From: an uncultured Bacillota bacterium
GTDB lineage: Bacteria > Bacillota > Clostridia > Christensenellales > UBA1242
Assembly: GCA_938034555.1 (NCBI GenBank)
Contig: CALHLT010000025.1
Span: 27,469-91,468 of the forward strand
Direction: 5' to 3'
DNA length: 64,000 nt
Every line of letters begins with the position of its first letter. The first letter of the stretch is position 1. The position numbers and the translations under genes are program-made. Positions 17,785-43,030 of the stretch are shown here, piece after piece. The notes under the pieces are model-generated. The model had not been told where the DNA came from, searched no databases, and saw only the letters and a list, made by a program, of their open reading frames with translations.

Positions 17785-18318
17785 ATGATTGGGTTAGACA
17801 AAAATTCTGTTAAAGTTGTTCCATATGATGCAACTTGGAAAGATGAATTTGAAAAAGAAAAAGTAATTTTAAAAAGCCTTTTAAAAGATTTTGATGTTCG
17901 AATTGAGCATGTTGGAAGCACGTCAATCCCAGGGCTTAGCGCAAAGCCTATAATCGACATTGCGCTTGGAGTAAAAGAAGAAAAAACTCTTTTTGAAGTT
18001 GCAAAGGTTTTGGAAAATGCAGGTTATGACATTCTTGATTCCTACAACACCAAAGGTGAAATTTTGGCAAGAAAGGGCAGCCCAGAAAACAGAACGCATT
18101 ATATTCACATTGAAATTGTTGGAAGTGAATATTGGAACGAATTTATGTATTTCAAAAAGTATATGCTAGACAATCCAGATGAAGTAAAAAAATATCAAGC
18201 GCTTAAAGAGCAGCTTAGCAAAGAATTTGCAGATGAAAGAAAAATGTATACTGCTTCAAAAAACGAGTTTATAACGAATGTTCTTGAGAAAGCATATAAA
18301 ACCTATAATTTGAATTAG
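17785..18318 (+). CDS. GrpB family protein
   Basis: ATG after GAGGAG. IEHVGSTSIPGLSAKPIIDI block typical of GrpB/UPF0157. Confidence 0.8.
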   Translation: MIGLDKNSVKVVPYDATWKDEFEKEKVILKSLLKDFDVRIEHVGSTSIPGLSAKPIIDIALGVKEEKTLFEVAKVLENAGYDILDSYNTKGEILARKGSPENRTHYIHIEIVGSEYWNEFMYFKKYMLDNPDEVKKYQALKEQLSKEFADERKMYTASKNEFITNVLEKAYKTYNLN

Positions 18319-18387
18319 AATAAGTATGCAAATATATTTTGTTAATGCATTAAAAAATGATAATATAAACATATATAGGGAGGGAAA

Positions 18388-19902: not shown

Positions 19903-20064
19903 AAACGTAAAAGATTTAGTTTAACGACGAAATGCGCGAAAGATGTAAATTTATAGGGGAGTTACACCTCTCGACATTAAAGATTGGAATTTCCTGTCTT
20001 AAGATGTTGCAAATTATAAAAATCAAAATTCTTTTATGCCAATTTTATATGATATAATGAAAAT

Positions 20065-20622
20065 ATGAAAAATAAATCTTTTCTTGCTGGGTTAATAATT
20101 ACAATAATTCTAAACTTGTTTTTCTTGACAGGCATAATTCTTTGCTGCATTTTTGATTTCACGATGCCATATTCAACAATCTTAATAACCGCGTTTATGT
20201 TTGCCTATCATTGCGACATTCGAATTTTAATTGCAAAAATTTTCACCGTTTTTTGCAAAAAAAGAGTAAATATTTTCAAAAAAACATATAAAATAAGCGA
20301 AAAAGAGTTTAATTTTTTAAATAAACTTGGCGTTAAAAAATGGAAAGATGGTTTTGTTGCGTGGGATAAAAAGCAATTTGTAATTAAAGATCTGCGCAAC
20401 CGTGAAAATTTGGAAATAGTTTTAAGAAACAATATCTCTGCCGAAATTATCCACTGGATTTGCTTTATTGCAAGTTTCTTTTCAATTCTTTTTGGTTGCT
20501 TGATGTCGCTTAGCGAATGGTGGATATATCTAATAACAGCAATTATTGTCCCTCTTTTAATCGACTTGCCTCCAATTTTGATTCAGCGCTTTAATCGCTT
20601 CCGCTTGCAAAAATTTCTCTAA
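20065..20622 (+). CDS. Multi-pass membrane protein, function unknown
   Basis: Four hydrophobic helices. The last core gene before the island. Confidence 0.6.
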   Translation: MKNKSFLAGLIITIILNLFFLTGIILCCIFDFTMPYSTILITAFMFAYHCDIRILIAKIFTVFCKKRVNIFKKTYKISEKEFNFLNKLGVKKWKDGFVAWDKKQFVIKDLRNRENLEIVLRNNISAEIIHWICFIASFFSILFGCLMSLSEWWIYLITAIIVPLLIDLPPILIQRFNRFRLQKFL

Positions 20623-20711: not shown

Positions 20712-20748
20712 TTATCAAGGCAGGGCTTTAACTCTAAGCCACACCACC
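20712..20748 (-). other. Orphan tRNA 5'-half-like fragment
   Basis: Reverse complement is GGTGGTG-TG-GCTT-AGAGTTA-AAGC-C-CTGCC-TTGATAA. It reads as acceptor 5' strand, a paired D arm and half an anticodon arm, then breaks off into AT-rich sequence. Confidence 0.5.
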
Positions 20749-20833
20749 AGGTGAAATGCCATTGTTTCGGAGTCTAATTAATAGGAGCCCAATTAAATAT
20801 AATTTTTGCTTAAAACCTTAGTACGGGGGTGAT

Positions 20834-20925
20834 CTCTCGCTGAGCCACAACAACAAATGCTGTTTTTTGATTGATTTTTACAGTGAATATGAGTGATGAA
20901 AAATTGTTGTTTTTGTTTTACCAAA
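20834..20925. repeat. Left copy of the ~92-bp direct repeat bracketing the island (outer att-like repeat)
   Basis: Aligns with 43008-43100 with about 13 differences by eye. Content is the tRNA 5' part, a 65-nt spacer and the ttaccaa junction. Confidence 0.7.
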
Positions 20926-21290: not shown

Positions 21291-22280
21291 ATGGAAGATA
21301 AATATATTCCACCATATGAGATAACTGATGAAATGTTGGAACTTGTTTCCGAAATAATGGAAAATTTAGGCAAACTTTCGGGTGTTAATGAATTGGAAAA
21401 ATTACCAAGACTTCGCAGAGTGAGTAGAATAAAGTCTATCCACTCTTCATTGGCAATTGAAAACAATACACTTTCTATTGAACAAGTAACAGATGTTATC
21501 AATGGGAAAAGGGTTCTTGCTCCACAAAAAGATATTGAAGAAGTCCACAATGCTTTTAATGCTTACGAAAAATTAAGTGAAATAAATCCATATAGCATTG
21601 ATGATTTGTTGAAAATTCACGGCATTATGATGAATGGTCTTGTAAAGGAAGCAGGAAGGCTTCGCTCAGGACAAGTTGGAGTTTATAATCAAGATGGCAA
21701 AGTTGTTCATCTTGCTCCGCCAGCAGATTTTGTTCCACAACAGTTAGGACAACTTTTTGATTGGGTGAAAAACAGTAATGCAAATATGCTAATTAAATCA
21801 AGTGTTTTCCATTATGAGTTTGAATTTATCCACCCATTTAATGATGGTAACGGAAGAACTGGAAGACTTTGGCAAACAGCATTGCTTGCTAGTTGGAAAC
21901 CAATATTTGCTTGGATACCTATCGAAAGCATTATTAAAGATAACCAAGAAGATTATTACAATGCAATCACTTTATCTACTAGTCAGGGTAAATCTAATAT
22001 CTTCATTGAGTTTATGCTAGATGTAATAAACAAAGCAATTAAAGATATAACAACCGATACCAGAAATCACTACAACCATATTAACAATCAAATTACAGAA
22101 CTTATGAAAGTGATTGAAAGTTATCCACAATCAGCAACAGAACTCATGGAAAAATTAAACCTAAAATCTCGTTTAGGATTTAGAAAAAACTATTTGCAAC
22201 CTGCCTTAGACGCTGGACTAATTGGAATGACCGAACCCGACAAACCAACAAGCAAAAATCAAAAGTATTTTAAGATATAG
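21291..22280 (+). CDS. Fic family protein (class II, N-terminal inhibitory helix) with C-terminal winged-helix region
   Basis: Fic motif HPFNDGNGRTGR at nt 21831-21866. Auto-inhibition motif SLAIEN of the (S/T)xxxE(G/N) type upstream. Confidence 0.9.
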   Translation: MEDKYIPPYEITDEMLELVSEIMENLGKLSGVNELEKLPRLRRVSRIKSIHSSLAIENNTLSIEQVTDVINGKRVLAPQKDIEEVHNAFNAYEKLSEINPYSIDDLLKIHGIMMNGLVKEAGRLRSGQVGVYNQDGKVVHLAPPADFVPQQLGQLFDWVKNSNANMLIKSSVFHYEFEFIHPFNDGNGRTGRLWQTALLASWKPIFAWIPIESIIKDNQEDYYNAITLSTSQGKSNIFIEFMLDVINKAIKDITTDTRNHYNHINNQITELMKVIESYPQSATELMEKLNLKSRLGFRKNYLQPALDAGLIGMTEPDKPTSKNQKYFKI

Positions 22281-22291
22281 TAGGTGTAATT

Positions 22292-23038
22292 ATGGGCGGA
22301 TATGTAGAAATTGGAAAAATAGAATATATAAATGAAGACAAAACTCCAATGAATGAAGAAAAAGAAAAGTTTTTGAAATATTTAAACTTGTATAGAAATG
22401 CCGGCAATTTTATTTCAATCGCCTTAAACACTATTGACCAACTTACTAGCAAGAAAACAAAACTGGCACAATTTGCTCCTGCATTTGTAAATTGTGTTCA
22501 CTACTCTTTTTGGTCTACAAGTGTAATACTTTTAAATTGTTTTTATTCTCGTGGCGATGATTTGTCAATTTTTTCTTTTATGGAATACATAAGAAATAAC
22601 TACAACAAAATTTTTACTGGTAAGTTTTATGATATTTATATTCATTCAGACAGAAAAGAAACAAAAAAAATAAAATTTGGAAAAAAAGAAATTTTTGAAC
22701 GACTTAATCAATGTGAAAACATAATTAAAGAGAATAATGAATTATTGGAAAAACTTGATACATTTAGGAATGAAATGTTTGCACATTTCAGTGAAGACAA
22801 AAAGAACAAATTAGAAAATCAATACCTTAATATCAAAGAATTACAAGAACTTTTATCATTGACAGAAAAAATAATTAACAATTTAAAAATTCCTTATGAT
22901 AGAACTTTTGAAAGCTTTGAACCAATAAACTCAAAGGATATATTAGGAATTGAACACATTTTAGAATTATACGAAGAAAATCGTGAATTAATAAAAAGCG
23001 AACACATAAAAAAAATATTTAAAAATGAAGACAAATAA
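22292..23038 (+). CDS. Hypothetical protein with a HEPN-like Rx4-6H motif
   Basis: RNEMFAH at nt 22766-22786 within an all-helical-looking 248-aa ORF that starts 11 nt after fic. Confidence 0.4.
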   Translation: MGGYVEIGKIEYINEDKTPMNEEKEKFLKYLNLYRNAGNFISIALNTIDQLTSKKTKLAQFAPAFVNCVHYSFWSTSVILLNCFYSRGDDLSIFSFMEYIRNNYNKIFTGKFYDIYIHSDRKETKKIKFGKKEIFERLNQCENIIKENNELLEKLDTFRNEMFAHFSEDKKNKLENQYLNIKELQELLSLTEKIINNLKIPYDRTFESFEPINSKDILGIEHILELYEENRELIKSEHIKKIFKNEDK

Positions 23039-23052
23039 AGTCTTCTTTTTTG

Positions 23053-23481
23053 TTAGATATAAATTATCGATTTGTTTTGTTTTTGAGCATATTTTAGAGT
23101 GCGATAGGCTCCACTTTTGTAAGTTTCTTCTATGTGCCAAACGAGAATGTCACAGTGGTCTATTATCCACTCGTTTCTTTTTGTGATTTTTTGTTTGTAA
23201 TGCATTTCTTCTATCTCTGGAAGTATTGAACCATCATAGCATGATGGCAAATCATATTTTTCTTTGTCGTGATGATAATATGTTAAAACACGAATTAATT
23301 TGATGTGTGGATATTTATGTTTTAATTGTAAGACCGCATGTGCACACTTTTCATCAAAAGCACCATAGTGTCCGTCATAAAAGATGGTGTATCCTTTATT
23401 GATTAAATCTTCTAGAACTTCGGGCAATTTGTGGAAAAAGAAATAAGCCAATATTGTTAAAAAGAAAATTTTTAGCGACAA
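23053..23481 (-). pseudogene. SLOG/DUF1273 (YpsA-like) gene lacking its N-terminal ~25 codons
   Basis: The family core is present (GYTIFYDGHYGAFDEKCAHAVLQLKHKYPHIKLIRVL...DILVWH). The usual CxFTGHR N-terminus is replaced by unrelated hydrophobic residues at the junction with the next fragment. Confidence 0.5.
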
Positions 23482-23486
23482 TATAT

Positions 23487-23807
23487 GAATGGTTAAATGC
23501 TGCCGAATATATAGCTTTAAATGGCAACAATCAAATTATTCTATGTGAAAGAGATGTAAGATCGTTTAATAATACAATCAGATATGTGTTATACTTACAA
23601 TGAGTAGTAGTGGCAAAAGGTTTATGTGAGTTGCCAGTCATTATTGACCATTCCAATTCTGGAAAAATGAGAGAACTGGCAAAACCTATGAGTTTAGTAT
23701 CAATTGCTTGTGGATCGGAGAGCTTAATTATTGAAGCTCACTTAGTTCCAGAAAATAGGTTATCTGATTCTAAACAATTAATATATTTGAACTACAACAA
23801 ATATTAA
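23487..23807 (+). pseudogene. 3' fragment of a DAHP/KDO8P-synthase family gene with an in-frame stop
   Basis: EWLNAAEYIALNGNNQIILCERDVRSF...(TGA at 23601)...LPVIIDHSNSGKMRELAKPMSLVSIACGSESLIIEAHLVPENRLSD. This matches only the C-terminal third of the family. Confidence 0.65.
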
Positions 23808-23827
23808 ATAGTATAAAGGAGTACAAA

Positions 23828-24681: not shown

Positions 24682-25077
24682 CGTATACCTGTTACGGATA
24701 GTGTCCTAGAAACATTAAAACAATGGAAAGAAAAGCAAAGTAAAAGACAAGAAACCAATCCAAATGTAACAGCAATTTTAACTGCGCCAACACCATTTGT
24801 GTTTGCTAACGATAACGGAAGTTATAGGACTTATTATGGCACAAGAGTAATCTTTGATAGGTTTAAACGAAGAAACGGACTAAATAAATACCACATTCAT
24901 TTTCACGGACTTCGCCATACATTCTCAAATATGCTTTTTGAAATGAACGAAAATCCAAAAGTTGTACAACAACTTTTAGGTCACCGTGATGTGAAAACAA
25001 CAATAATGAACTATAACTCAGTTGACCAAGTATACTTTGAAAAAACCAGAAACCTTATAAATGAACAGTTTAAATAA
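24682..25077 (+). pseudogene. Tyrosine integrase remnant (C-terminal ~130 codons only), paralog of the integrase at 39384-40778
   Basis: Open from the stop at 24679. RIPVTDSVLETLKQWKEKQ...HFHGLRHTFSNMLFEMNENPKVVQQLLGHRDVKTTIMNYNSV aligns with the intact integrase. Nt 24896-25005 are about 90 percent identical to 40431-40540. Confidence 0.85.
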
Positions 25078-25081
25078 ATTT

Positions 25082-25123
25082 AAAGCCGAGGTAGAGAGTA
25101 AAATCTTTGCCTCGGCTTTTTTT
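25082..25123 (+). terminator. Terminator after the integrase remnant
   Basis: aaagccgagg...cctcggcttt 10-bp stem followed by a T run. Confidence 0.6.
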
Positions 25124-25218
25124 GTTTATACAAATTTTGACATTGGATGTCAAGATTTATATAAAAACTATCATTATAATGATATATTTTTTCTCCAGAA
25201 AATACTCTCAAAAAAAGT

Positions 25219-25304
25219 TATCTCCAAAAAAAGTGGCAAAAACACCCTTAAAAATCACATTTTTGGGAGATAAAAATAGAAAACTTGCCACTTTTCTGGA
25301 GATA
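25219..25304. repeat. Imperfect 20/21-nt inverted repeat upstream of the KAP gene
   Basis: tatctccaaaaaaagtggcaa (25219-25239) against ttgccacttttctggagata (25285-25304), two mismatches, 45-nt spacer. Confidence 0.4.
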
Positions 25305-25562
25305 AGGTTTACATATATGCTTGATCAAATAAAAATGGTGTTGTGTAGTAATTTGAATATTTGATAGGCTATTTGTAATAGTTTTTGTTGATTTTTAAGC
25401 AAAGAATAAGTCTAAAACTGAGATGGTAAGAAATTCAGCTTCTACTTTTTCTGATTATTATAAGACAAAATGCAATTATTATGGTATAATAAAAGCGTAA
25501 TTGTGAGTTAAATCTATAAACTTACTATTTTGATTATTAAAAATTTTAAACAGAGGAGAAAA

Positions 25563-28500
25563 ATGAAAAACAAAACAACACCGCAAATCAATTATGAAAG
25601 ATATAAAAGTGATTGTGAAAAATTGGATGTGGCAATTAAAGATAAAGATATTAGGAATATCGCAGTAAGTGGTATTTTGGGGGCTGGGAAAAGTAGTCTT
25701 ATAAAAACGTATGATAAAGCTTTTAATAATAAGAAAGGTAAAAAAATTGTTAACAATTACAATAAAAAGCAGAATTCAAAAGATTCTTCCAACACTTTAG
25801 ATGACCAGTTGGAAAAAATTCATGGGAAATCAATAAATAAATCTATAAGAATATCTTTAGCGAATTTTAATGTGGTTAATGATAAACAATTGAAAAAAGA
25901 AAAGAAAGATTCGCTTAAAGGTAATAATGAAGCGACTTTAACTAATATCACAGATCAAATAAAGAAAGATATAGAAAATTTGGATTACTATAAGGAAGAC
26001 AGAGAAACCAATTTAGATGTCAATGAGGTTGAAATTGAAAAAAGTTTATTGCAACAATTCATTTTTAATGTTCCTTCATGTGCATTACCAGATTCGCATA
26101 TTAGAAGAGTTGAAAAAAAGTTTGCTTTTAAAACTTTTGCTTTGGTTTCTTTTATTATATTCTTGATTTCGGCTGCCGTATATTTTACAAATAAATTTAA
26201 TATATTATGGACTAGTGATATTATTGTTGACAAAATTATTATATCTATTGGAATTCTTTCATTATTGGTACTTTTGAGTATTTTACCTTTTATTTTTAAA
26301 TTAAAATCTTTAAAAGTTGATACATTTGAAATAAAAGCTGAATATGCTGGGAATGATAAACAAGATTTGCTAAATAAATATTCTGATGAAATAATATATT
26401 TTTTCGAAAAATCAAAAGTTAAGATCGTTTATTTTGAAGATTTAGATAGGTTGCCTAATTTAAATATTTTTAACAAATTAAGAGAAATAAATTATTTACT
26501 TAACAACACAACTTATATAAAACATAAAATAGTTTTTGTTTACTGTGTTTCAGATGATATTATTTCTGATAGTGAAGAGAGAAATAAGTTTTTTGATTTG
26601 ATTCTTACAGTTTCACCATATTTAACTCAGGAAAGTGTGAAAAAATATATTAGTCAAGAACTTGGTGATAAACAAAATGTTAAGGTTTCAGATTTTTGTG
26701 AAAATATGTCAAGGTTTATTACTGATTCTAGGATGCTATCCAATATTATTAATGATTTTAAAGAAATAGTAAAAAAGAATAAATTGTCTCAAACAGAAGA
26801 TAAGATAAAAGCCTTCACATTATCTATTTATAAAAATTTATATTATTATGATTTTAATAAGTTAAATAACAATAATGATTGTATTTCAAAATCGTTCACA
26901 TTAGTTGATAATTATAAAAACAATGAGATTGAAAAATTGAAAGATGACATCAATAATAAAAATAAGATTTTAAAAGAATCTTTCTTAAATAAGGAAGCAA
27001 GGATACATTTTTTCAAAGAAAGGCTTATAGGTATTTTAACATTAAATATTAATAATACTCATATGGTAAGACAGGGGCAGCAAGGTAAAAATATTGCGGA
27101 CATAAACAGCCTTGAAGATTTTGAATCCAATGAAAACTTTTATGTGTATTTGTCAAATTATAATTTGAGTTATTATAGCAGTAAATCTAATATTGTAAAC
27201 TATTGGAACGAGCATAGTGATGTGTCTTTTGATTTGTATAAACAAGAAATTTTGTTTAGTGATGAAGATAAACGAAATGATATAATTAATGAAATTGAAT
27301 TACTCAATCAAAAAATAAAAGGTATATATACTTTGCCCGTTTCTAACTTTATGAGAGATTATAAATGCTCATTAACTCAAGATACAACAAAATTTTTAAA
27401 CATAAGTTTTTTAAATGGATATATTGAAAGTGATTATAGGCAATTTATTTTTGGACATGACAATGATTATCTTGTTCAACAAGATGATATTTTTGTTCGC
27501 TATAATAATTTTGGTTCAAATAATGAGTTGGTAAAAAATAACTATGATTATCAGTTGACTAATATACCTGTTATTGTTAGCCAGATACAGGAAAACAGAT
27601 TTGGCAACAAAACAATTCTTAACGATATGATCGTAAGTTTTGTATTAAATAGTCAAGAAGGATCTTTGAAAAAGAAAAAAGAAAATTTAAAAAACTTATT
27701 GTTAAAGGATGATGAAGAGGTAGCTAATTATTTTGAACACTATATTAGGGATAGAGAATATTCAGATTTCTATAATCTTATAAAAACAATTGGTATACCT
27801 AAAGTCTTATTTAAGGTATTCTTGCGTATTATTGGTTCAATTTCTTTAGAAAATCAAAATAAGTATATGCAATTATTATTAGAGAGTATTGAATGCATTG
27901 AAGGGGAAGATCAAGAAATTTTCAAATTAATAAACAATTATACGGATTGGAGTGGAATAGATTTTACTGGTGAAATAATTGAGAAATTAAAAATTAGAGC
28001 ACAAAACGGAAGTTGTAAATTAAAAATAGAGAGTATTTCAAAATTTGATGAGACTTCATTTGAGTTAATTATTAAGAATCAAGTATTTGCTATAAATTAT
28101 GAGAATTTATCTGTTATTGCAAAACGAAAATATAATGTAAAATTGGAAGGTTTATTACAGAGTGTATTAGTTGAACAGGGGTCTGCAATAAAAAAATTTA
28201 TTTTAGAAAATATACAAGAATTTTTAAAAATAGTCCCAAATTCGCATTTGCAAGAGAAAGAAATAATAGCACTTCTAAAAGAGAATAATTTGACAACTGA
28301 TATTAAACTTGAACTTATAAAACAAACAGATTTTGTGATAGAAAAAGGGTTCGATGAGTTACATCAAGATATTATAAGTGAAGTAATTAAAAATGATAAA
28401 TTCTCTAAAAATATTGGGACGGTTTTTCATATTTATGAAATTTGTGGTTTTGACATCATAAAAACATATTTTTCTGAAAAACATTTCAAATCATTAATAA

Positions 28501-29288
28501 TAAATATTAATGATATTAAGGTATCAGAACATTATGATGAGTTTTTAAATAATATTAAAAGTTTGTATTTTCAAGAAAATGCATGTGATATTATGAATTC
28601 ATTTGGTATAACTGATGTTGTTTTTGATGGTTTAATTGATCCCGTATTTGATGAGCATATCAAAAAATTAATTGAAGCTGGAAATGTATCTTTTCATGAT
28701 CAAAACTTTAATATGTTGATAAATTGCCCTCATAGTTATATGAGTTTAGTTTTGAAAAATATTAATTCATTTAAAGAATGGATGATGATTCCAGGTAAAT
28801 TGAATTTGAGTAAAGAGGCAGTTACATTTTTACTTTGTAATATCAATAACAGTGAATTTGAATCATCAATTTTAAACGATTTTGCGGATAAAATTGATTT
28901 CACTTTTGCGGATAATATAGGTGGTGCTAGAGAAAACTACTTTGGTCGTATTGTATTAAAGATAAAAGCAAGTCGAATTACAAATGCTAATATAATAAAT
29001 TCCTTATTTAGCATTAGACCGAGTACTAATGAAATGAAGAAAGATTATATCGATTTGATTTCCGCTAATCAGGGATTATTTGATAATACGCAAGTTATTG
29101 ATAAGTTTAAAATGGTTGATTCACAATTCATACAGGTGTTTGAAAAAATTGATAATGAGAGGAATGCTGACTTTGCTGTGAACGATACAATTATTTATTA
29201 TGGTTTATCAAAATTAAAAGAAATGGGGATAATTCAATATCGTAACCCAGGTAGATCGAGTAAAATAAAAGTTTCTTGGTCAGTATAA
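25563..29288 (+). CDS. KAP/YobI-type P-loop NTPase with transmembrane insert, 1241 aa
   Basis: ATG after GAGGAG. Walker A GILGAGKSS (nt about 25671-25694), two TM helices (nt about 26130-26298) and Walker B IVYFEDLDR (nt about 26424-26447). The TM pair lies inside the P-loop domain, which is the KAP hallmark. Long N/K/I-rich C-terminal region. Confidence 0.8.
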   Translation: MKNKTTPQINYERYKSDCEKLDVAIKDKDIRNIAVSGILGAGKSSLIKTYDKAFNNKKGKKIVNNYNKKQNSKDSSNTLDDQLEKIHGKSINKSIRISLANFNVVNDKQLKKEKKDSLKGNNEATLTNITDQIKKDIENLDYYKEDRETNLDVNEVEIEKSLLQQFIFNVPSCALPDSHIRRVEKKFAFKTFALVSFIIFLISAAVYFTNKFNILWTSDIIVDKIIISIGILSLLVLLSILPFIFKLKSLKVDTFEIKAEYAGNDKQDLLNKYSDEIIYFFEKSKVKIVYFEDLDRLPNLNIFNKLREINYLLNNTTYIKHKIVFVYCVSDDIISDSEERNKFFDLILTVSPYLTQESVKKYISQELGDKQNVKVSDFCENMSRFITDSRMLSNIINDFKEIVKKNKLSQTEDKIKAFTLSIYKNLYYYDFNKLNNNNDCISKSFTLVDNYKNNEIEKLKDDINNKNKILKESFLNKEARIHFFKERLIGILTLNINNTHMVRQGQQGKNIADINSLEDFESNENFYVYLSNYNLSYYSSKSNIVNYWNEHSDVSFDLYKQEILFSDEDKRNDIINEIELLNQKIKGIYTLPVSNFMRDYKCSLTQDTTKFLNISFLNGYIESDYRQFIFGHDNDYLVQQDDIFVRYNNFGSNNELVKNNYDYQLTNIPVIVSQIQENRFGNKTILNDMIVSFVLNSQEGSLKKKKENLKNLLLKDDEEVANYFEHYIRDREYSDFYNLIKTIGIPKVLFKVFLRIIGSISLENQNKYMQLLLESIECIEGEDQEIFKLINNYTDWSGIDFTGEIIEKLKIRAQNGSCKLKIESISKFDETSFELIIKNQVFAINYENLSVIAKRKYNVKLEGLLQSVLVEQGSAIKKFILENIQEFLKIVPNSHLQEKEIIALLKENNLTTDIKLELIKQTDFVIEKGFDELHQDIISEVIKNDKFSKNIGTVFHIYEICGFDIIKTYFSEKHFKSLIININDIKVSEHYDEFLNNIKSLYFQENACDIMNSFGITDVVFDGLIDPVFDEHIKKLIEAGNVSFHDQNFNMLINCPHSYMSLVLKNINSFKEWMMIPGKLNLSKEAVTFLLCNINNSEFESSILNDFADKIDFTFADNIGGARENYFGRIVLKIKASRITNANIINSLFSIRPSTNEMKKDYIDLISANQGLFDNTQVIDKFKMVDSQFIQVFEKIDNERNADFAVNDTIIYYGLSKLKEMGIIQYRNPGRSSKIKVSWSV

Positions 29289-29374
29289 ATTTGGATTAGA
29301 TATGCAATTATATGCAAATAGCCCCGTTTTAGGCAAAATAGGGGATAATTAGAGCGATTTTTAGGAAAAGAAAA

Positions 29375-29409
29375 GACTGGCAATTTGAAGAGAATTGCTG
29401 GTCTTTTTT
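29375..29409 (+). terminator. Terminator downstream of the KAP gene
   Basis: gactggcaatt/aattgctggtc stem with two G-U pairs, followed by TTTTTT. Confidence 0.55.
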
Positions 29410-29494
29410 ATGTGCAAAAAGTATGCAATTTATATGCAAATATTTTTTGGCAAAATTTTGGCAATAAAAAAAGCCCATAAAATGGGCGTTTTAG

Positions 29495-29539
29495 TGGAGC
29501 TTATGACGGGAATCGAACCTGTGACCTCCACCTTACCAA
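29495..29539 (-). other. Displaced tRNA-Thr 3' half (att site of element E2)
   Basis: 40 of 45 nt match 42956-43000, running from the CCA end to the anticodon-loop sequence ttaccaa. Identity stops exactly there. A native-looking terminator (gcccat/atgggc plus a T run on the minus strand) lies at 29468-29492. Confidence 0.75.
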
Positions 29540-29647
29540 CACACGAACCCTAGCACAAAACTTGTGCCCACACCCCAAAACCACCCATAAATACTAGCAT
29601 TTTCGCTAGTATTTTTTTATTAGATGCATAATCAAATGAAATTTGTG

Positions 29648-29663
29648 CACCTATTGACACCTA
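29648..29663 (+). promoter_or_regulatory. Putative arm-type integrase binding site (left arm)
   Basis: The 16-mer cacctattgacaccta is identical to 42732-42747, in the same orientation, about 110 bp inside the att core. Confidence 0.4.
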
Positions 29664-29835
29664 CAAGCACTTTTTTGACTACTTTTGGTGGTCTAAATCT
29701 TTCTAAACCTATTTAAAATTTTAGGAAACTCACGACAGTTTGAACTTAGCCAATGTTCCCTAAAAAAATAATTGAAATATTTTATCAAAATTTAAGTACA
29801 TTTTTTGTAAAAGTATATATAAAAAAGAAAAAATA

Positions 29836-29861
29836 TGTTATAATCATCCTAAGATTTAGGA
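29836..29861 (+). promoter_or_regulatory. Extended -10 element followed by a perfect palindrome (candidate operator) upstream of the 1038-aa gene
   Basis: TGTTATAAT at 29836-29844, then ATCCTAAgatTTAGGAT at 29845-29861. Confidence 0.35.
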
Positions 29862-29999
29862 TTGATTGCTAGTAGTATTATTAATTTGTTCTTTTTCCTT
29901 AAGAACTGCTGTAATAATTTCTTTCTTAGTTTTGCCTTTAAAACTTTTAATTAATTCTTTTATCGTCATATTTTAATATATTTAAGTAGGAGCTTACAA

Positions 30000-32900
30000 A
30001 TGAATAAAAATTTTAGCATTATACATCTTTCAGATTTGCACTATGATAAAAAGAAGGCAACTTCAAGTTCATTGCTTGTCGACAATATTTTTAATGATAT
30101 TAAATATTTAGAGAAACAAGAAGAAATTGAACCTAAATTAGTATTATTTACAGGAGATCTAGTAAATTTTGGTGGACAAAACGAGTTATTTGAAGAAGCA
30201 TATAATAATGTTATAAAACCTCTATTAGATAAATTAGGACTTAACTGTAATAAGTTTATTTATGTACCAGGTAATCATGAATTAGATAGAGAAAAAGTTG
30301 ATGAGGATTTTCAAGCTGGTTTTGTAAATAGAATAGGTTCGGCTGATATTGATAAGGAAAATTTTGGAAAAGATGTTTTAACACAAAGATCTAACAACTT
30401 CTTTAATTTTATAAATAGTTTATATAAATGGGACAAAGAAGATGTTATAAAAAATACAATAATCAGCATAGAAGGTTTTTCTATAGGTATTTCACTATAT
30501 AATACAGCTTGGTGTTCTTCTACATATAGTGAGCAAGACCAAAAGAAAATTTTTATGCCGCCAATTTTAGCAAAGCAGAAATTAAATGAATTAAACGATT
30601 GTGACTTTAAAATAGCAATGATGCATCATCCAATTGACTGGTATGATGATGAAAATGCAAATAAATTACAACACACATTATCGCAGTATAATTTGGTATT
30701 ATGCGGGCATAAGCATTTAGAAAATAATAAACTAGAACAAAAAGGCCCACTAAAAACGGTTTATAGTTATGCTCATAAACTTTTACCTCTTAAAGATAGA
30801 GAATCAGGATATTCTATTATAAAAATATTGCCTAATGAAAACAAGTTGGAAGTTTACTTTAGAGAATATAATGATAAGTTAAGCGCTTTTTCAACTGGTA
30901 TAACTAGTATTGATCAAGAAGTATCAGGATTAAAATATTCCGAATACGAAATTGGTAAAAAAGATGAAATAATCCAATCTTGCTATAGAGTGTTTTCGGC
31001 AATTAAAACCAACTTTATTAAAGGTTTAGATGAGTTGTTTATAACAAACACAATTGAAAGCAGTAAGAAGAGTTATGATAGCCTATTTGTAGATTTTTCA
31101 TTAACCGATTATCCACCATATAGTGAACCAACAAAAGAGAACTCAAAAAAAGACAAGAAAAACAATTATCATATCAATGATTTGACTAACCTAACTGGCG
31201 AAATAAATATATATGGTAAAAAGGAGTCTGGAAAAACAGTATTCGCTTATTCAATTGCAAAATATTTTCTAGACGAATTTGAAAAATATAAAAAGATACC
31301 GGTAGTGATTAATTGCAAAAAATATGGGAATACGAATTCAAATTTAAACAAAATTATAAATTGTATAATTTACGATTATTTAAATGAAAATAGTGATGTG
31401 TCAAAAAGAGAAATTTCTTCACTAGTCGATAAAGAAATGATAGTATTGATTTTTGATGAATTTGAATTTTTAACACAAAAGCAGCTTAAAGAATTAGCAA
31501 ACATTAACGTTACTAAATACTGTATAAAAGATTATAACCCTTTAGTTTTTGGTGAAGATGATAAGGGGTTTATTCAAAATGAAATAACTAAAGAAAAGAA
31601 AAATTATTTTATAAAACCTTATACTAAAAATGATGTCAGAAAGCTTGTAAATAATGTTTCAGTAATTGAAGGAGATAATCAATATGTAGAAAATGTTATA
31701 ACATATTTCTATACAACATCTTTACCTAGAACTCCATTTGTTGTTTCACTTATAGCAACTATTTGTGCAAAAAATAAAGATACAATTCCTACTAATCAAG
31801 CAAAGATACTCGAACAATTTTTAGAAAATGTTTTAGAAAAAATAAATCCAATTGAACAATTGTCAAGAACTTATGATTTTAGCAATAAAGAGGATTTTTT
31901 AAGTCATTTTGCTCATAAGTTATATACTCTTAATTCATTTTCTATGTCATATAATGATTTTTGTCAATTTACTTTAGATTATCATACAGAGAGAGGATTT
32001 TGTTTAGAGGACTCTAAATTTGATACCTTGTTTTTTGAGAAAAATATTCTCGTAAAAGAAGATAATTTGGTTTATTTTAGATTTTCATGTTTTAATTACT
32101 ATTACTTGGCAAAATTTGCTATTAAGAATTCTGATTTTAAAAACTCGATAATTAACACAGAAAAAATTGCAATTAATGCAGATATACTATTTTATTACAC
32201 GGGTTTAAAAAGAGATGACGCACACATGTTGACTGATGTAAAAAATCAATTAAATGAATATGTGCAGCAAAATTTTGTTGACGTTGATATTTTTGATCAA
32301 GACCCAATAAAAACAAATCTAGGATTAACCGACGACTTTGTAGAGGCGGTGAAAGAAAAGGCGGAAACAATAAATCAAACAGAAAAAGATGAAATTACGG
32401 ATAGAGGTGATACATCATCCGAGTATAATCCAACGAATAATATTGTTAATGTTAATGGACAATCGTTTGATAAGTTATTGTCAATATTAGGCTTTTCAAT
32501 AAAAAACTGTGAAGAAGTCAGCGCTAATCTAAAAAAAGAATCAATGAGAGTTTATCTAAAAGGTTGCAGAATACTTTGGAATAACTTTAGAAATCAAATG
32601 TTAAATTTCGCAAAAGAGGTTAATTTATTAATTTTACAAGATTCTGAAAATGTAGATGAGCAATTAAAAAAAGCATTCGAAATATTTGAGGACATTTTAA
32701 AAATAACAATCCCTATAGCAATATCACAAGCTATGTTAGAGAACTCAGCTACTGAAAAAATGAAAACTATTTATGTAGAGATTTTAAATGAGTGTGATTA
32801 CAATACACCTGAAAAAATGTTGTTGACTTTCTTACTGTTAGATTTAAACCACAAGGATAGTGAAAAGTTTGTTCATGATTTCATTAACAATACTAATAAC

Positions 32901-33116
32901 AAAAATTATCTAATGGTTTGTTTATTTAAATTATTGTATAATTTCTTGTATGGGACAATGTCTAACAATAAAAAACTTTTAAATCCGATAGCGGAATGTT
33001 ATATTAAAGCAACAAATTCTAAAAAGAGTGATAAGGGAAAAATTATTGAAAGTGTTAAAAAACAAGAATTTTATGATAAGTTTTTAATAAATGATTCTAA
33101 AACTAGCAATAATTAA
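30000..33116 (+). CDS. Metallophosphoesterase fused to a P-loop NTPase and a long helical C-terminal region (STAND/NLR-like logic), 1038 aa
   Basis: RBS AGGAG. MPE motifs LSDLHY, FTGDLV, VPGNHE, MMHHP and LCGHKH within aa 1-240. Walker A GKKESGKT at nt 31215-31238 and Walker B IVLIFDEF at nt 31440-31463. Confidence 0.85.
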   Translation: MNKNFSIIHLSDLHYDKKKATSSSLLVDNIFNDIKYLEKQEEIEPKLVLFTGDLVNFGGQNELFEEAYNNVIKPLLDKLGLNCNKFIYVPGNHELDREKVDEDFQAGFVNRIGSADIDKENFGKDVLTQRSNNFFNFINSLYKWDKEDVIKNTIISIEGFSIGISLYNTAWCSSTYSEQDQKKIFMPPILAKQKLNELNDCDFKIAMMHHPIDWYDDENANKLQHTLSQYNLVLCGHKHLENNKLEQKGPLKTVYSYAHKLLPLKDRESGYSIIKILPNENKLEVYFREYNDKLSAFSTGITSIDQEVSGLKYSEYEIGKKDEIIQSCYRVFSAIKTNFIKGLDELFITNTIESSKKSYDSLFVDFSLTDYPPYSEPTKENSKKDKKNNYHINDLTNLTGEINIYGKKESGKTVFAYSIAKYFLDEFEKYKKIPVVINCKKYGNTNSNLNKIINCIIYDYLNENSDVSKREISSLVDKEMIVLIFDEFEFLTQKQLKELANINVTKYCIKDYNPLVFGEDDKGFIQNEITKEKKNYFIKPYTKNDVRKLVNNVSVIEGDNQYVENVITYFYTTSLPRTPFVVSLIATICAKNKDTIPTNQAKILEQFLENVLEKINPIEQLSRTYDFSNKEDFLSHFAHKLYTLNSFSMSYNDFCQFTLDYHTERGFCLEDSKFDTLFFEKNILVKEDNLVYFRFSCFNYYYLAKFAIKNSDFKNSIINTEKIAINADILFYYTGLKRDDAHMLTDVKNQLNEYVQQNFVDVDIFDQDPIKTNLGLTDDFVEAVKEKAETINQTEKDEITDRGDTSSEYNPTNNIVNVNGQSFDKLLSILGFSIKNCEEVSANLKKESMRVYLKGCRILWNNFRNQMLNFAKEVNLLILQDSENVDEQLKKAFEIFEDILKITIPIAISQAMLENSATEKMKTIYVEILNECDYNTPEKMLLTFLLLDLNHKDSEKFVHDFINNTNNKNYLMVCLFKLLYNFLYGTMSNNKKLLNPIAECYIKATNSKKSDKGKIIESVKKQEFYDKFLINDSKTSNN

Positions 33117-33131
33117 ATTTGCTAGTTTTTT
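33101..33131 (+). terminator. Terminator overlapping the 3' end of the 1038-aa gene
   Basis: aactagcaa/ttgctagtt stem followed by TTTTT. Confidence 0.55.
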
Positions 33132-33139
33132 GTGCTAAA

Positions 33140-33394
33140 AACCACCAGACTATCTGGTGGTTCAGTAGAGGCTTTTGCCGTTGAACAAAATATCTCCTTG
33201 TGTTAGAATTAAATATTGTCTGCAAACAAAATTTAAAACACAAGAAGATAAAAGTCATGAATGACACGAATAGTTTAGCACACACAACTTGGAATCGCAA
33301 GTATCACATTGTATTTGCACCAAAGTATAGAAGATTAGTATTCTTCAGTCAAAAGAGAAAAGAGATTGGAGCAAGCAAAGTTGAAAGTTATTAA
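33140..33394 (+). mobile_element. IS200/IS605-family remnant: end hairpin plus the first ~40 codons of tnpA
   Basis: Perfect 10-bp hairpin aaccaccaga-cta-tctggtggtt at 33140-33162. The ORF from 33257 encodes MNDTNSLAHTTWNRKYHIVFAPKYRRLVFFSQKRKEIG, a Y1-transposase N-terminus, and then diverges and stops. Confidence 0.65.
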
Positions 33395-33695
33395 CTATCT
33401 AAAAGAATTGATAACTATAGCGCCACAAGAAAAGGCCTTTATAAAAGAATTTAGAAATCAAAATTACAAACCTGAATGGCTATTTGATGATAAGAATATG
33501 GTTGAAAACATTTCACAACTCCCAATGGCATTGTGTGGAGATGTAAAAAATAATATTAATCAAATTTACTCAAAATCACCACTATTATGGGTAAAATATA
33601 TAAATATGGTTAAGATGCTTGTATTTTTAATACAAGTTTTAAAAGAATATGCTATAATAAACTTAGATTTAACTTCCTATAATATGAAATTATAG
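33366..33695 (+). pseudogene. Possible C-terminal fragment of an AbiEii/DUF1814-type nucleotidyltransferase toxin gene
   Basis: ...QEKAFIKEFRNQNYKPEWLFDDKNMVENISQLPMAL... resembles the family C-terminus as I recall it. No N-terminal catalytic part is present. Weak call. Confidence 0.3.
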
Positions 33696-33716
33696 GAATA
33701 TACAGAAGGAAAAAAT

Positions 33717-34397
33717 ATGTCTAAAGGAATAATTTATGTCTGTTCAACAGTTGTTGATGGTTTGATTAAGATTGGAAGAACAACAGATTTTGAAAAAAGA
33801 ATGGAAATATTGGAAAATAATGGTTATCGTAATGTTACGGGTTTAAAAAGGCAATTTGCAATAGAATTGGAAAACCATGAAGAAATAGAACAATTATTAG
33901 ATGATTTATTTGCAAAAAGTAGAGTTGGTAACACCGAATTATTTTCTTTAGACATAAATAAAACTATTCAATTATTGTCATCTTTTTCAGGTAGACAAAT
34001 ATATCCTATGGATAAATCAAAACAAGAAGTATTTGAAAACGCAACTGAATTGGTTCAATCTCAATTAATTCCCAATGGAGAATATGTGTTCAATAGAAAA
34101 ATTAAAGAGATGAACAAAACAATTATTGCAAAGCTTAATGTTGAAAATGATAAATTTTTACTAAAAGCTGGTTCAATGATAGCCCCATACAAAGAGTATA
34201 AAACGCCAGCTTGGATTGTAACAAGAAGGTCAATGAAGATTGAGAATAATATATTGTTAAATGATGTTGAGTGTTCTTCTCCATCTATGGCAGCTGCACT
34301 GGTTGTTGGTCAAGCGGCTAATGGCTGGATCAGTTGGAAAAATAACAAAGGACAAGCTATAGATGTTTATCGAAGAAAAGATAGTGAACTTGATTAA
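33717..34397 (+). CDS. T5orf172 (GIY-YIG-related) domain protein with DUF4357-like C-terminal domain
   Basis: GIIYVCSTVVDGLIKIGRTTDFEKRMEIL...EIEQLLDDLF...GNTELFSL. The C-terminal part SPSMAAALVVGQAANGWISWKN is typical of DUF4357. Confidence 0.7.
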   Translation: MSKGIIYVCSTVVDGLIKIGRTTDFEKRMEILENNGYRNVTGLKRQFAIELENHEEIEQLLDDLFAKSRVGNTELFSLDINKTIQLLSSFSGRQIYPMDKSKQEVFENATELVQSQLIPNGEYVFNRKIKEMNKTIIAKLNVENDKFLLKAGSMIAPYKEYKTPAWIVTRRSMKIENNILLNDVECSSPSMAAALVVGQAANGWISWKNNKGQAIDVYRRKDSELD

Positions 34398-34471
34398 ATC
34401 CTATAATTGCAATTTTATAAGGGAAAAGTTAAATGATAAAGATACAAAGATAGATAAAAGGAGTAATTCGA

Positions 34472-37966: not shown

Positions 37967-37971
37967 CAAAA

Positions 37972-40778: not shown

Positions 40779-40850
40779 AAATTTTATAATTATTTGAAAT
40801 AAAGATGAATTTTATAGATTTATATGTTATAATTACAGAGAGGAATTGAT

Positions 40851-42680
40851 ATGAAAGGAAACAAAGAAATATTTGAAGAGTTTTTTATAACTATGATGGA
40901 AAGTAAATTTTCTGGGAGTACAAGCTATGTAGAAATGCCTAATAATAATTGCTTTAGATTCTGTTTAAAAGAGTGTATTTATTGTTTAAGTAAAAATGAA
41001 AATAAAGAAAGTAATATAAGAGATTATTCAATCGCTGTATTTAATAATTTTTATAAGTTTATGCAAAAAGATATTATATTTAAAAATATCAATGATTTTG
41101 AATATAGAAATTTACTTTTAAAATTAAAGCATTATTCAGAAGGAAGTAATAATGAAGTCTCAAAACAAAAATTAGCGTATTTTGATAGAATTAATAATTA
41201 TTATTCAAAAAAATATTTTGAAAAGTGTTATTTAATGTTAATAGAATTATATAACAGTGAGAGCCCTTTAGACTTCGACGATTTATATTTTATTGAAAAT
41301 GTTTTTTTTAATGAACTTTTAGCATTAAAAATGAATTACCAATTTATTGGTTATTCTTTAGAATTGTATAAAAAGGGTAAGTTTAATAATATCTTAGATT
41401 ATATAAAATATTTATATTATCATAATAGAGACAATATGGAAATTTATATACCTTTGAAAAATTGTAGCGAAAAAGACTTGAAATTTTTAAGGAAAAATCA
41501 AGAAATCATAATTATTGAATCAGTTGTCTATTGTAAAACTTATGAAACTCGTTTTATAGATTTTTATTCATGGATCGAAAAACAAATTATTAGAATAGAA
41601 TCATTATTTAATGCACTTAGATTTTATACAGAAAGTGAATTGGATTTTGATTTGGAAAACGAGATAATAATACACTCTTCTTATTTTGATGATAAGATAA
41701 AAATCCCTTTTAAGAATATTATTTCATATTCTAATAAATTAGTTAACTATTCAAATATGCCAACTTTGATGGAGTCATTAAATAAATTAAAACAAGTTGA
41801 TAACACATTGAGTTTTAATGACGATATAACCGATGAAGGTGCAAATATAGATAATAAATTAAAAAGTGGAACTAAAAGAATAAATACTGAGTTTAATGAA
41901 AGTAGAAAGATACTATATTATAAAATTTTAAATATTTTGAGTTTCGTTGAAAAGGATAAAGATTATTTAAATCACAACTCATTTGTTGATAATTGGTCCG
42001 CATTGGAAACATTGTGTGGATTATCTGGAATTAAATCGGGGTATGAAGCGGTGAAATATTTTGTTCCTAAAATTATTCGTTCAAAAATTATCCTTAAAGA
42101 TATAAATGACGTTTTTTATAGATATTTTTCTGTAAGTAATCCTAGTTTTAGAGCTCAACAATTTATTACCTGCATTAAAAACGGAAATTTCGAATTTGCA
42201 CGAATAAATAATGCATATTTTATGTATAAATTAAAAAACTATGAAAAGGTTTTTAAAAGTATAAAAACATTTGAAAATTATTTAAAAAACATAGAAGATA
42301 TAATCTCTTATGATATAATGAGAATTTACATGATAAGAAATGAATATGCTCATGATAGCAATTTAAATGTTTTTAATTCTATGCAACAATATAAACTAAA
42401 AGTTATCGTTCCACTTGTTTTAGACGAGTTTTTTAAGGTTTTAAATAAAAACATTGATAATTTTGATACAGAAGAAGGTTTATCGTTCGATGTATTTAGC
42501 GATATATTGCAAAGATATGATGCTCAATGTGGAGCTTTTGAACTTATAGATAAGGGCTTAAAAATAAATAATGGTGGCAAAGATTTAAAAATTGATGTTA
42601 AAAATTATACAATAAAAGAAGATGAGTTTATTTTTAATGTATTAAAAAATAATACGCAACCATTTAAAAAATATAATTAG
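40851..42680 (+). CDS. Large HEPN-motif protein (Abi/ApeA-like candidate), 609 aa
   Basis: RNEYAH (Rx4H) at nt 42336-42353 in the C-terminal quarter. The N-terminal ~480 aa have no motif I recognise. Extremely AT-rich. Confidence 0.5.
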   Translation: MKGNKEIFEEFFITMMESKFSGSTSYVEMPNNNCFRFCLKECIYCLSKNENKESNIRDYSIAVFNNFYKFMQKDIIFKNINDFEYRNLLLKLKHYSEGSNNEVSKQKLAYFDRINNYYSKKYFEKCYLMLIELYNSESPLDFDDLYFIENVFFNELLALKMNYQFIGYSLELYKKGKFNNILDYIKYLYYHNRDNMEIYIPLKNCSEKDLKFLRKNQEIIIIESVVYCKTYETRFIDFYSWIEKQIIRIESLFNALRFYTESELDFDLENEIIIHSSYFDDKIKIPFKNIISYSNKLVNYSNMPTLMESLNKLKQVDNTLSFNDDITDEGANIDNKLKSGTKRINTEFNESRKILYYKILNILSFVEKDKDYLNHNSFVDNWSALETLCGLSGIKSGYEAVKYFVPKIIRSKIILKDINDVFYRYFSVSNPSFRAQQFITCIKNGNFEFARINNAYFMYKLKNYEKVFKSIKTFENYLKNIEDIISYDIMRIYMIRNEYAHDSNLNVFNSMQQYKLKVIVPLVLDEFFKVLNKNIDNFDTEEGLSFDVFSDILQRYDAQCGAFELIDKGLKINNGGKDLKIDVKNYTIKEDEFIFNVLKNNTQPFKKYN

Positions 42681-42731
42681 AATCACCTTTTTAATAATTA
42701 TTAAAAATAATTAATTAAGCCTACAATTTGA

Positions 42732-42747
42732 CACCTATTGACACCTA
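42732..42747 (+). promoter_or_regulatory. Putative arm-type integrase binding site (right arm)
   Basis: cacctattgacaccta is identical to 29648-29663. A further direct repeat, ttttgtgtacctaa, occurs twice at 42827-42840 and 42849-42862. Confidence 0.4.
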
Positions 42748-42955: not shown

Positions 42956-43030
42956 TGGAGCTGGTGACGGGAATCGGACCCGTGACCCCCACCTTACCAA
43001 GGTGGTGCTCTACCGCTGAGCCACACCAGC
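42956..43030 (-). tRNA. tRNA-Thr (anticodon GGU), CCA encoded, non-canonical T loop
   Basis: Cloverleaf: GCTGGTG / GCTC-AGCGGTA-GAGC / CCACC-TTGGTAA-GGTGG / GGGTC / ACGGG-TCCGATT-CCCGT / CACCAGC-T-CCA. The T loop has C where U55 is expected. Confidence 0.75.

Follow-up and report, generated by a model that had tools for sequence, protein, structure and literature searches.

A divergent full-length Tmn-family transmembrane NTPase gene carried as cargo of a tRNA-Thr-integrating element in an uncultured gut Bacillota bacterium

The closest described system to the gene reported here is Tmn of Escherichia coli (PADLOC model PDLC02220; variant Tmn-25), a YobI-family P-loop nucleoside triphosphatase (NTPase) with Walker A and B motifs and two transmembrane (TM) helices embedded in the P-loop domain (Wu 2026, PMC13001434). 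The variable, alpha-helical C-terminus consists of a proximal arm, made of a coiled coil and a variable alpha/beta domain, and a distal arm that forms an ARM/HEAT-like solenoid (Wu 2026, PMC13001434). In the same study, E. coli Tmn was reported as a decameric membrane complex that is activated by RIIB of phage T2, after which ATP is turned over faster, Mg2+ is exported selectively, the cells plasmolyse and ATP-sensing systems are activated secondarily; Tmn was found in 5,915 of 223,572 genomes (68% Pseudomonadota, 24% Bacillota and 7% Bacteroidota), falling into 10 clades without a conserved operon. Tmn was labelled a KAP-family NTPase by Yamashita 2025 (PMC11846954), whereas YobI was treated as phylogenetically distinct from KAP by Wu 2026 (PMC13001434). 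Here the analysis concerned a 64,000-nucleotide stretch of contig CALHLT010000025.1 (assembly GCA_938034555.1, positions 27,469 to 91,468 of the forward strand; "the window") from the metagenome-assembled genome of an uncultured Bacillota/Eubacteriales bacterium, in which an open reading frame (ORF) at 25563-29288 had been proposed in an initial annotation, made from the sequence alone, as a Tmn-like single-gene antiphage candidate. The encoded protein is almost certainly a member of the Tmn family, and the gene is a new, divergent and complete representative of a family already covered by the PADLOC and Pfam libraries, with activity and mechanism assigned by homology.

The ORF runs from 25530 to 29288 when read from a TTG codon and from 25563 to 29288 when read from an ATG, the latter giving 1241 amino acids (aa); AGAGGAG lies upstream of the ATG, and the same start was chosen by the gene callers in all homologs. 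The features of the gene and its product are as follows.

25563..29288, plus strand: Tmn-family (YobI-type) transmembrane P-loop NTPase gene, 1241 aa (ORF, Pfam, PADLOC, hhalign).
25671..25697, plus strand: Walker A, GILGAGKSS, aa 37-45 (G42/K43 equivalent to the essential G66/K67 of Tmn-25).
26121..26297, plus strand: predicted TM hairpin inside the P-loop domain, with TM1 at aa 187-211, a short loop and TM2 at aa 220-245 (hydropathy, AlphaFold2, charge).
26424..26450, plus strand: Walker B, IVYFEDLDR, aa 288-296 (D293/R296 equivalent to the essential D276/R279 of Tmn-25).
26880..27362, plus strand: predicted proximal arm, aa ~440-600, with coiled-coil helices at 440-473 and 481-494, an alpha/beta unit (strands 525-530 and 535-540) and a helix at 568-588 (AlphaFold2; alignment to E. 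coli Tmn).
27363..29285, plus strand: predicted distal arm, aa ~601-1241, solenoid-like, with ~37 short helices between aa 611 and 1199 (AlphaFold2, Foldseek, hhalign).
27843..28202, plus strand: hypervariable, putatively mosaic segment of the distal arm, aa 761-880 (comparison with the allele at locus L001, described below).

In a Pfam scan, the protein matched YobI-ATPase (PF20693) with E 9.5e-62 and 210 bits (cut-off 27 bits), aa 92-438 aligning to positions 41-359 of the 363 in a model that spans the NTPase and TM region only and not the C-terminal 800 aa. Its sole PADLOC match was Tmn PDLC02220 (E 6.2e-34), and the protein was thereby placed in the YobI/Tmn clade as anticipated. The original label, "KAP/YobI", held for its second half only; KAP_NTPase (PF07693) gave no match at E<=1, the one other Pfam signal being a sub-threshold AAA_7, and the KAP assignment was rejected on this ground. 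By Pfam the protein is classed as YobI and not as KAP, and the double wording mirrors the literature, since Tmn is called a KAP-family protein by Yamashita 2025 (PMC11846954). A few distant homologs (P0038 and P0043) match both PF20693 and PF07693. With the KAP NTPases (Aravind 2004), of which PifA of the F plasmid is an example, the protein shares the character of a membrane-associated P-loop NTPase and a link to conflict and defence; unlike them, it lacks the PF07693 match. NCBIfam gave only sub-threshold P-loop noise, and a sequence-profile search of the PDB returned only P-loop-level matches to IRG GTPases (E ~5e-4), so that no relative has a deposited structure.

Identity to enterobacterial Tmn is only 17-24%, single-sequence searches recognise only the N-terminal third of the protein and Pfam matched nothing beyond aa 438. 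In a profile-profile comparison with hhalign, a subfamily profile of 19 sequences was aligned with an enterobacterial Tmn profile of 13 sequences at 100% probability (E 7e-75) over 1113 columns, covering positions 14-1249 against 27-1247 of 1268 and reaching the C-terminal ends of both. The two groups of proteins are therefore homologous and collinear over their full length, arms included. The likeness to Tmn first proposed was thus borne out from end to end, while the accompanying statement that the C-terminus has no recognisable domain is true of Pfam but not of profile-profile and structural comparison, both of which recover the Tmn arms.

Functional residues were mapped through P0106, an enterobacterial homolog of 1274 aa (195 cluster members) whose Walker A numbering, G66/K67, is that of Tmn-25; other Tmn-25 residues were placed by motif, the numbering of P0106 being 2-3 higher than that of Tmn-25 once past the TM insert. 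The nine NTPase residues essential for defence by Tmn-25, namely G66/K67, Y262, D276/R279, N297, K325/F326 and R374 (Wu 2026, PMC13001434), are all present, as G42/K43, Y279, D293/R296, N314, K342/F343 and R390, and their columns are invariant in alignments of 30 and 57 sequences. In the 57 sequences, G42, K43, S44, E292, D293 and R296 are all invariant. In the proximal arm, F526 is the conserved equivalent of the essential Tmn-25 residue F506, as placed by a low-identity alignment with an inferred numbering offset.

Between the Walker motifs, which were found where the initial annotation had put them, lie two hydrophobic stretches, FALVSFIIFLISAAVYF (aa 192-208) and IIISIGILSLLVLLSILPFIF (aa 225-245). 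All Kyte-Doolittle 19-residue windows above 1.6 fall inside aa 186-252, with peaks of 2.2 and 2.76, and the best window elsewhere in the whole protein reaches 1.53. The TM pair proposed earlier thus comprises the only strongly hydrophobic helices and the membrane-spanning candidates of the protein. In the AlphaFold2 (AF2) model, long helices at aa 187-211 and 220-244 form a helical hairpin, and the distribution of K and R around it (four before TM1, one in the loop and four after TM2) fits an in-out-in topology with both NTPase halves in the cytoplasm. In the profile-profile alignment, the sequences of the TM helices differ between subfamilies and are not conserved. An enrichment of asparagine, lysine and isoleucine (N/K/I) had also been ascribed to the C-terminal part; the richness is real, but it is shared by the N-terminal part (9.8/13.4/10.9%, against 10.6/9.1/12.1% in the C-terminal part) and arises because the gene has a GC content of 24%, the island ranging from 24 to 31% and the genome standing at ~36%. 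The reading of this richness as the mark of a low-complexity tail was rejected as a composition effect.

The AF2 model, which covers residues 1-1200 and was built from 57 aligned sequences, had a mean predicted local distance difference test (pLDDT) score of 82.2, with values of 85-92 over aa 600-1200. It shows an alpha/beta P-loop core to which the sequence on either side of the TM hairpin contributes, followed by the two arms. The ~37 helices of the distal arm compare with 38 implied by the repeats described by Wu 2026 (6 ARM, 5 HEAT, 2 ARM and 2 HEAT), in what is a rough count made without assigning repeat classes. Foldseek gave weak matches of the core to NSF/AAA+ proteins and of the arm to HEAT/ARM solenoids (CRM1, Rif1, exportin-4 and STAG2); an NSF/AAA+-like core and a HEAT/ARM-like arm have also been reported for Tmn (Wu 2026, PMC13001434). 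When aa 600-1241 were searched as a single sequence against 1.84 billion cluster representatives, only 14 matches were obtained at E<=1e-3, and all full-length proteins among them were of 1150-1290 aa and matched in their C-terminal half, so that this arm was never seen outside a protein of Tmn length and its sequence type is scarce. By analogy with E. coli Tmn, the distal arm is presumed to be the phage-sensor surface.

The gene is accessory, not core. At least 476 loci of the family were confirmed in species-representative genomes (Bacillota, Bacteroidota, Pseudomonadota, Campylobacterota, Spirochaetota and Fibrobacterota), and homologs occur on 627 plasmids, mainly conjugative plasmids of Escherichia. 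A tblastn search of 50,697 phage records gave no match, and there is thus no sign of a phage-borne copy. Within the subfamily, a search of 5.8 billion proteins found one cluster 94% identical to the window's protein, then homologs at 43%, 42% and 37-38% and then at ~33%, while the closest match among 185,579 species genomes was 33% identical. At 90% identity, Tmn forms a cluster of 7 members, compared with 55-180 in the clusters of flanking core genes, and some flanking proteins were seen on as many as 231 contigs; in agreement with the original proposal, close homologs are uncommon and accessory, not core. Near-identical intact copies were recovered from several independent samples. Gene contexts of four homologs (P0001, P0123, P0003 and P0009) are all different, P0003 (42% identity) lying among AbiH, SIR2, SLFN-helicase and MazG-like genes and P0009 (33%) standing alone between ordinary chromosomal genes; the contexts of these two fit the stand-alone behaviour reported for Tmn.

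Comparison with the 94%-identical allele of locus L001 gave a ratio of non-synonymous to synonymous substitution rates (dN/dS) of 0.19 over the whole gene, 0.10 for the NTPase and 0.22 for the distal arm. The gene is under purifying selection, and a pseudogene reading was rejected on the intact frame and the dN/dS of 0.19. Of the 69 aa differences between the alleles, half lie inside aa 761-880, where dN was 0.127 and dS 0.31, compared with ~0.015 and ~0.11 elsewhere. Since both rates are raised, the data suggest recombination that left a mosaic here, more than simple positive selection. The stretch aligns (approximately) to P0106 764-897, on either side of Tmn-25 L867, a residue whose mutation altered the phage specificity of Tmn-25 (Wu 2026, PMC13001434), and by this analogy it is probably a specificity determinant exchanged between alleles. 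Taken together, selection, rarity and mosaicism point to a gene that is functional, accessory and variable where the specificity determinant of the family would be expected.

The genomic setting was resolved into two integrative elements at one tRNA-Thr gene, an older element (E1) to which the Tmn gene belongs and a second one (E2) inserted next to it. The E1-side features are listed below.

24685..25077, plus strand: C-terminal remnant of the E1 tyrosine integrase (ORF 24799-25077, 92 aa; Pfam Phage_integrase, E 8e-15).
25082..25119, plus strand: putative intrinsic terminator directly 3' of the integrase remnant (16-bp stem, then a T run).
25462..25490, plus strand: promoter-like site AAGACA-17-TATAAT with TG, ~70 nt 5' of the ATG (consensus match only).
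25552-25558, plus strand: Shine-Dalgarno-like AGAGGAG (sequence).
29369..29409, plus strand: putative intrinsic terminator 3' of the Tmn gene (-20.6 kcal/mol, z = -7.0, then a U run).
29490..29539, no strand: attachment site (att) copy, the 3' part of tRNA-Thr(ggt) up to the anticodon loop, at the E1/E2 junction (88% over 50 nt to 42951-43000).
42956..43030, minus strand: intact tRNA-Thr(ggt), integration target of E1 and E2 (ARAGORN).

The Tmn gene lies between the integrase remnant (24799-25077) and the E1 att copy (29490-29539), as had been described. On sequence signals, it is predicted to form its own transcription unit in this interval, insulated by the terminator at 25082..25119; a hairpin comparable to the one 3' of Tmn is found 3' of the E2 cargo at 42781-42813. 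A basic 61-aa ORF (25182-25364) without a family match lies between the integrase terminator and the promoter-like site, and was also called as a gene in L001 (7969-8154) and L083 (9617-9802). The remnant shares 73% nucleotide identity with the E2 integrase gene. In L001, the gene order is primase and AAA_25 genes, an integrase gene that is intact (399 aa; 41% identity to the E2 enzyme), the 61-aa ORF, the 94%-identical Tmn (P0001) and, directly next to it and where the window has the att copy, an intact tRNA-Thr(ggt), from which it follows that Tmn belongs to the older element E1, whose att end was displaced by E2. DNA homology between L001 and the window covers 24898-29539 of the latter at 95% and begins within the integrase remnant, which points to a recombination breakpoint there. 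Tmn is thus cargo between the integrase and att of the tRNA-Thr-integrating element E1; this element has since decayed, and E2 has taken its place at the tRNA. Other defence genes on the E1 side encode SoFic, an AbiU2-like protein and a NUDIX protein. In a search for the empty site in other strains, contigs with the left flank either carried the same island or broke at repeated tRNA-like sequence.

E2 spans ~29540-42955, inserted at tRNA-Thr, and encodes a 464-aa tyrosine integrase (39384-40778) with a Xis-like 87-aa ORF (39128-39391) 5' of it. The interval between its integrase and att corresponds to the position of Tmn in E1.

40802..42742, plus strand: E2 cargo slot between integrase and att, holding a 609-aa orphan ORF (40851-42680) (homology break among relatives).

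Integrase relatives were sampled from metagenome contigs and the genes up to the next tRNA were listed (loci L088, L089, L090, L093, L095, L096, L098, L099 and L104). Relatives with integrases 92-93% identical to that of E2 in DNA and 97-98% in protein lose homology to E2 at 40777-40801 and regain it at 42743, which delimits a cassette of ~40802-42742 with conserved sequence on both sides, including a conserved att-proximal block of ~210 nt next to tRNA-Thr(ggt). Beside integrases 97-98% identical to that of E2, the cargo consisted of ORFs of 609 aa, 141+348 aa, 482 aa, 381 aa or 112+180 aa, comprising an MqsR-like toxin with an MqsA/helix-turn-helix-Panacea antitoxin, PDC-M36A, a CapH/CapP-like pair and the 381-aa and 609-aa unknowns. 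With more distant integrases, ORFs of 220, 316, 384, 877 or 919 aa were found (Mrr-nSTAND1, a Ppl-like ATPase, Schlafen/AlbA_2 and a 220-aa unknown) or no cargo, the slot being empty in L098 (63% identity) and beside integrases 33-36% identical, where the tRNA follows 114-250 nt past the integrase stop codon. The integrase-to-att interval as a real exchangeable cargo slot is strongly supported by these data, and the earlier view that E1 and E2 use the same slot stands, the cargo of relatives differing between conserved flanks. The pattern suggests that slot cargo is replaced by homologous exchange. Remoter integrase relatives (L107-L109, L113 and L131) adjoin tRNA-Ile(gat) (49-50% identity), tRNA-Leu(cag) (65%) or tRNA-Gly(gcc) (33%), which suggests target switching within the integrase family.

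The 609-aa protein in the E2 slot had been taken for a HEPN protein. Its RNxxxH motif (R496-N497-E-Y-A-H501) is indeed invariant in seven of seven aligned homologs; however, the protein gave no Pfam or PADLOC match even at E<=10, its AF2 model was poor (mean pLDDT 54, and below 50 around the motif) and Foldseek found nothing with this model. A HEPN identity is plausible as a motif-level guess and was not confirmed. Only 10 homologous clusters were found among 5.8 billion proteins, and the protein is considered a candidate novel defence gene.

In the hotspots of P2 and P4 and the accessory regions of phage-inducible chromosomal islands, unrelated defence genes swap at a fixed site in a mobile backbone. 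The slot described here is alike in that unrelated genes swap at a fixed site, from the integrase stop codon to the ~210-nt att-proximal block. It differs in its tyrosine integrase, whose target in gut Clostridia is the anticodon-loop region of tRNA-Thr(ggt), in the primase and AAA_25 genes carried by the E1 type and in its position between integrase and att, not in phage late or cos-proximal regions. A broader proposal, offered tentatively and slightly short of probable, is that the integrase-att interval is a hotspot, not described before, at which a family of small integrative elements in gut Clostridia exchanges defence cassettes, with Tmn as one cassette of many, a sensor arm remodelled by segmental exchange at aa 761-880 and a divergent clade that possibly relies on another trigger or ion in its monoderm host.

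Set against E. coli Tmn as a whole, the window's protein is likewise a single protein of ~1250 aa in which a two-helix TM hairpin separates Walker A from Walker B. It shares the nine essential NTPase residues, a proximal arm built of a coiled coil and an alpha/beta unit, and a distal alpha-solenoid with a comparable number of helices; there are no partner genes, and variability is concentrated in the distal arm. It differs in its 17-24% identity, in having F556/Y559 at the presumed equivalents of Y541/R544 and two extra low-complexity loops between Walker A and TM1, in its host, which is an uncultured gut Bacillota rather than a member of the Enterobacteriaceae, and in its carrier, an integrative element at tRNA-Thr in place of an F-type plasmid.

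On these grounds, the gene probably encodes a full-length Tmn-family member that forms a self-contained single-gene anti-phage system, and an anti-phage role of the protein is likewise likely. By analogy with E. coli Tmn, the hairpin would hold an oligomer, decameric in E. coli, in the membrane, leaving both NTPase halves and the arms in the cytoplasm, and the solenoid arm would bind an early phage protein. Binding would stimulate ATP hydrolysis, which would drive ions (Mg2+ in E. coli) out of the cell, so that the cytoplasm collapses and ATP is depleted; phage development would then stall, and ATP-sensing neighbouring defences may be triggered. That the protein uses the same Mg2+/plasmolysis output as E. 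coli Tmn is possible and is held with some doubt, because the host is monoderm and the arms and TM helices are divergent.

Several points weigh against this assignment. The PADLOC Tmn model aligns well only to aa 144-599 (profile 113-592 of 1273), and F556/Y559 stand where Tmn-25 has the essential Y541/R544, as judged from a low-identity alignment with inferred mapping. The low-complexity insertions at aa ~57-92 and ~104-150 (pLDDT ~50) are absent from E. coli Tmn, Foldseek gave no significant match to any solved structure, and membrane insertion is judged from hydropathy and AF2. In addition, all Tmn variants assayed so far were assayed in E. coli (Wu 2026, PMC13001434), and Mg2+-export plasmolysis may not transfer to the Bacillota/Eubacteriales envelope.

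The alternative that survives best, and which we consider unlikely, retains the family and changes the output: phage would be sensed by the arms and ATP burnt, with export of another ion, plain ATP depletion or a PifA-like KAP membrane lesion as the result in a monoderm host. It draws on the strong divergence of the sensor arm (14 related clusters; 17-24% identity to enterobacterial Tmn), on TM helix sequences that are not conserved between subfamilies, on the Bacillota host and on the statement that divergent Tmn homologs may answer other triggers or export other ions (Wu 2026, PMC13001434). The invariance of the NTPase and coupling residues and an architecture collinear from end to end argue instead for a conserved core mechanism, and 24% of Tmn occurrences are in Bacillota (Wu 2026, PMC13001434).

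An improbable alternative is that the gene mainly serves the mobile element, either by excluding or competing with rival elements or by stabilising the island through addiction. The gene is indeed cargo of an integrative element, the slot of a sister element holds an MqsR/MqsA-Panacea toxin-antitoxin pair and the cassette was kept in several samples after the rest of E1 had decayed; however, Tmn has neither a partner antitoxin nor a conserved operon, most other slot cargos are of defence type and family members directly protect E. coli from phage (PMC13001434, PMC11846954). The two roles are not mutually exclusive.

A housekeeping or other non-defence role for a YobI-family membrane NTPase, with the likeness to Tmn reaching the superfamily level only, is very improbable. 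The Pfam family is named for B. subtilis YobI, and homolog P0009 (33%) lies between ordinary chromosomal genes. To our knowledge, the function of B. subtilis YobI has not been established. Homology to validated Tmn nevertheless extends from end to end, beyond the NTPase, and the gene is rare, strain-variable and borne on a mobile cassette in a low-GC island where its neighbours are defence genes. Finally, the idea of a decaying, non-functional relic of a dead element, prompted by the adjacent integrase cut to 92-139 aa and the loss of other E1 genes, can practically be dismissed in view of the intact 1241-codon frame, the dN/dS of 0.19 overall and 0.10 in the NTPase, the presence of all catalytic residues together with a promoter-like site, a Shine-Dalgarno sequence and terminators, and the near-identical intact copies in several independent samples.

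Further observations concern the island around the single-gene Tmn system. The left part (21291-23038) encodes a SoFic-type Fic protein (PADLOC, E 2e-45) and a weakly matching HEPN_AbiU2-like protein, and a ~1.6-kb segment (~21400-23020) is missing from the otherwise 98%-identical loci L082 and L083, showing that island content differs between strains. The region 23020-23810 is ambiguous in its coding, with a 142-aa minus-strand ORF that gives a sub-threshold SLOG/YpsA match; on the near-identical loci L168 and L082, gene callers placed a plus-strand DAHP-synthase-like gene of 190-260 aa, of which only a 65-aa plus-strand fragment is still open in the window. Defence-type proteins encoded by the E2 cargo at 30000-37966 include one of 1038 aa with Metallophos and nSTAND4 (PADLOC PDC-S60, E 5e-91), one of the T5orf172/DUF4357 type (PDC-S57, E 1e-87) and one of 709 aa in which an EcoRI-type adenine methylase is fused to a C5 cytosine methylase (m6A/m5C). 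Two unannotated ORFs follow the methylase fusion (36601-37473 and 37427-37966), the second with a faint PDDEXK match, and may encode its cognate nuclease or nucleases. Two 63-nt direct repeats (38136-38198 and 38232-38294; 75% identical and 96 nt apart) lie in non-coding sequence 5' of the Xis-like ORF and the E2 integrase and may be iterons or regulatory sites of E2.

At the left edge of the island, a 110-nt direct repeat (83%; 20815-20924 against 42991-43100) contains the 5' half of tRNA-Thr and its upstream leader, and degenerate tRNA-like fragments occur near 20715-20760 and 43080-43130. The left chromosomal flank of the window (15956-20616) is found inverted on the other side of the tRNA in L088 (10051-14690), and in L096 (6350-8144) that side of the tRNA holds PHP and GrpB homologs in direct orientation, a comparison that indicates rearrangement at the tRNA-Thr hotspot. 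Just outside the island, a chromosomal protein of 282 aa (ORF 15651-16499) has a collagen-like G-P-T/G-x-y tract that is encoded by tandem 9-nt GGxCCAACx repeats (15744-15826).

Tmn is one of few membrane-integrated single-protein sensor-effector defences, and what is known of it comes entirely from enterobacterial variants. The divergent (~20% identical) Tmn of the window has kept the catalytic and coupling residues while its sensor arm has diverged almost past recognition by sequence, which makes it a useful comparison for asking which parts of the machine are universal and whether Mg2+ export and plasmolysis operate in a monoderm envelope. As an annotation the Tmn gene is ordinary, and the more original by-products are the cargo slot and the mosaic hotspot of the sensor arm. 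Because near-identical integrases carry unrelated conflict genes, the slot could be used as a marker for new defence genes in gut Clostridia, orphans included. If the proposed hotspot is real, it would be minable for new immunity genes, such as those encoding the 609-aa RNxxxH protein and the 381-aa and 220-aa unknowns.

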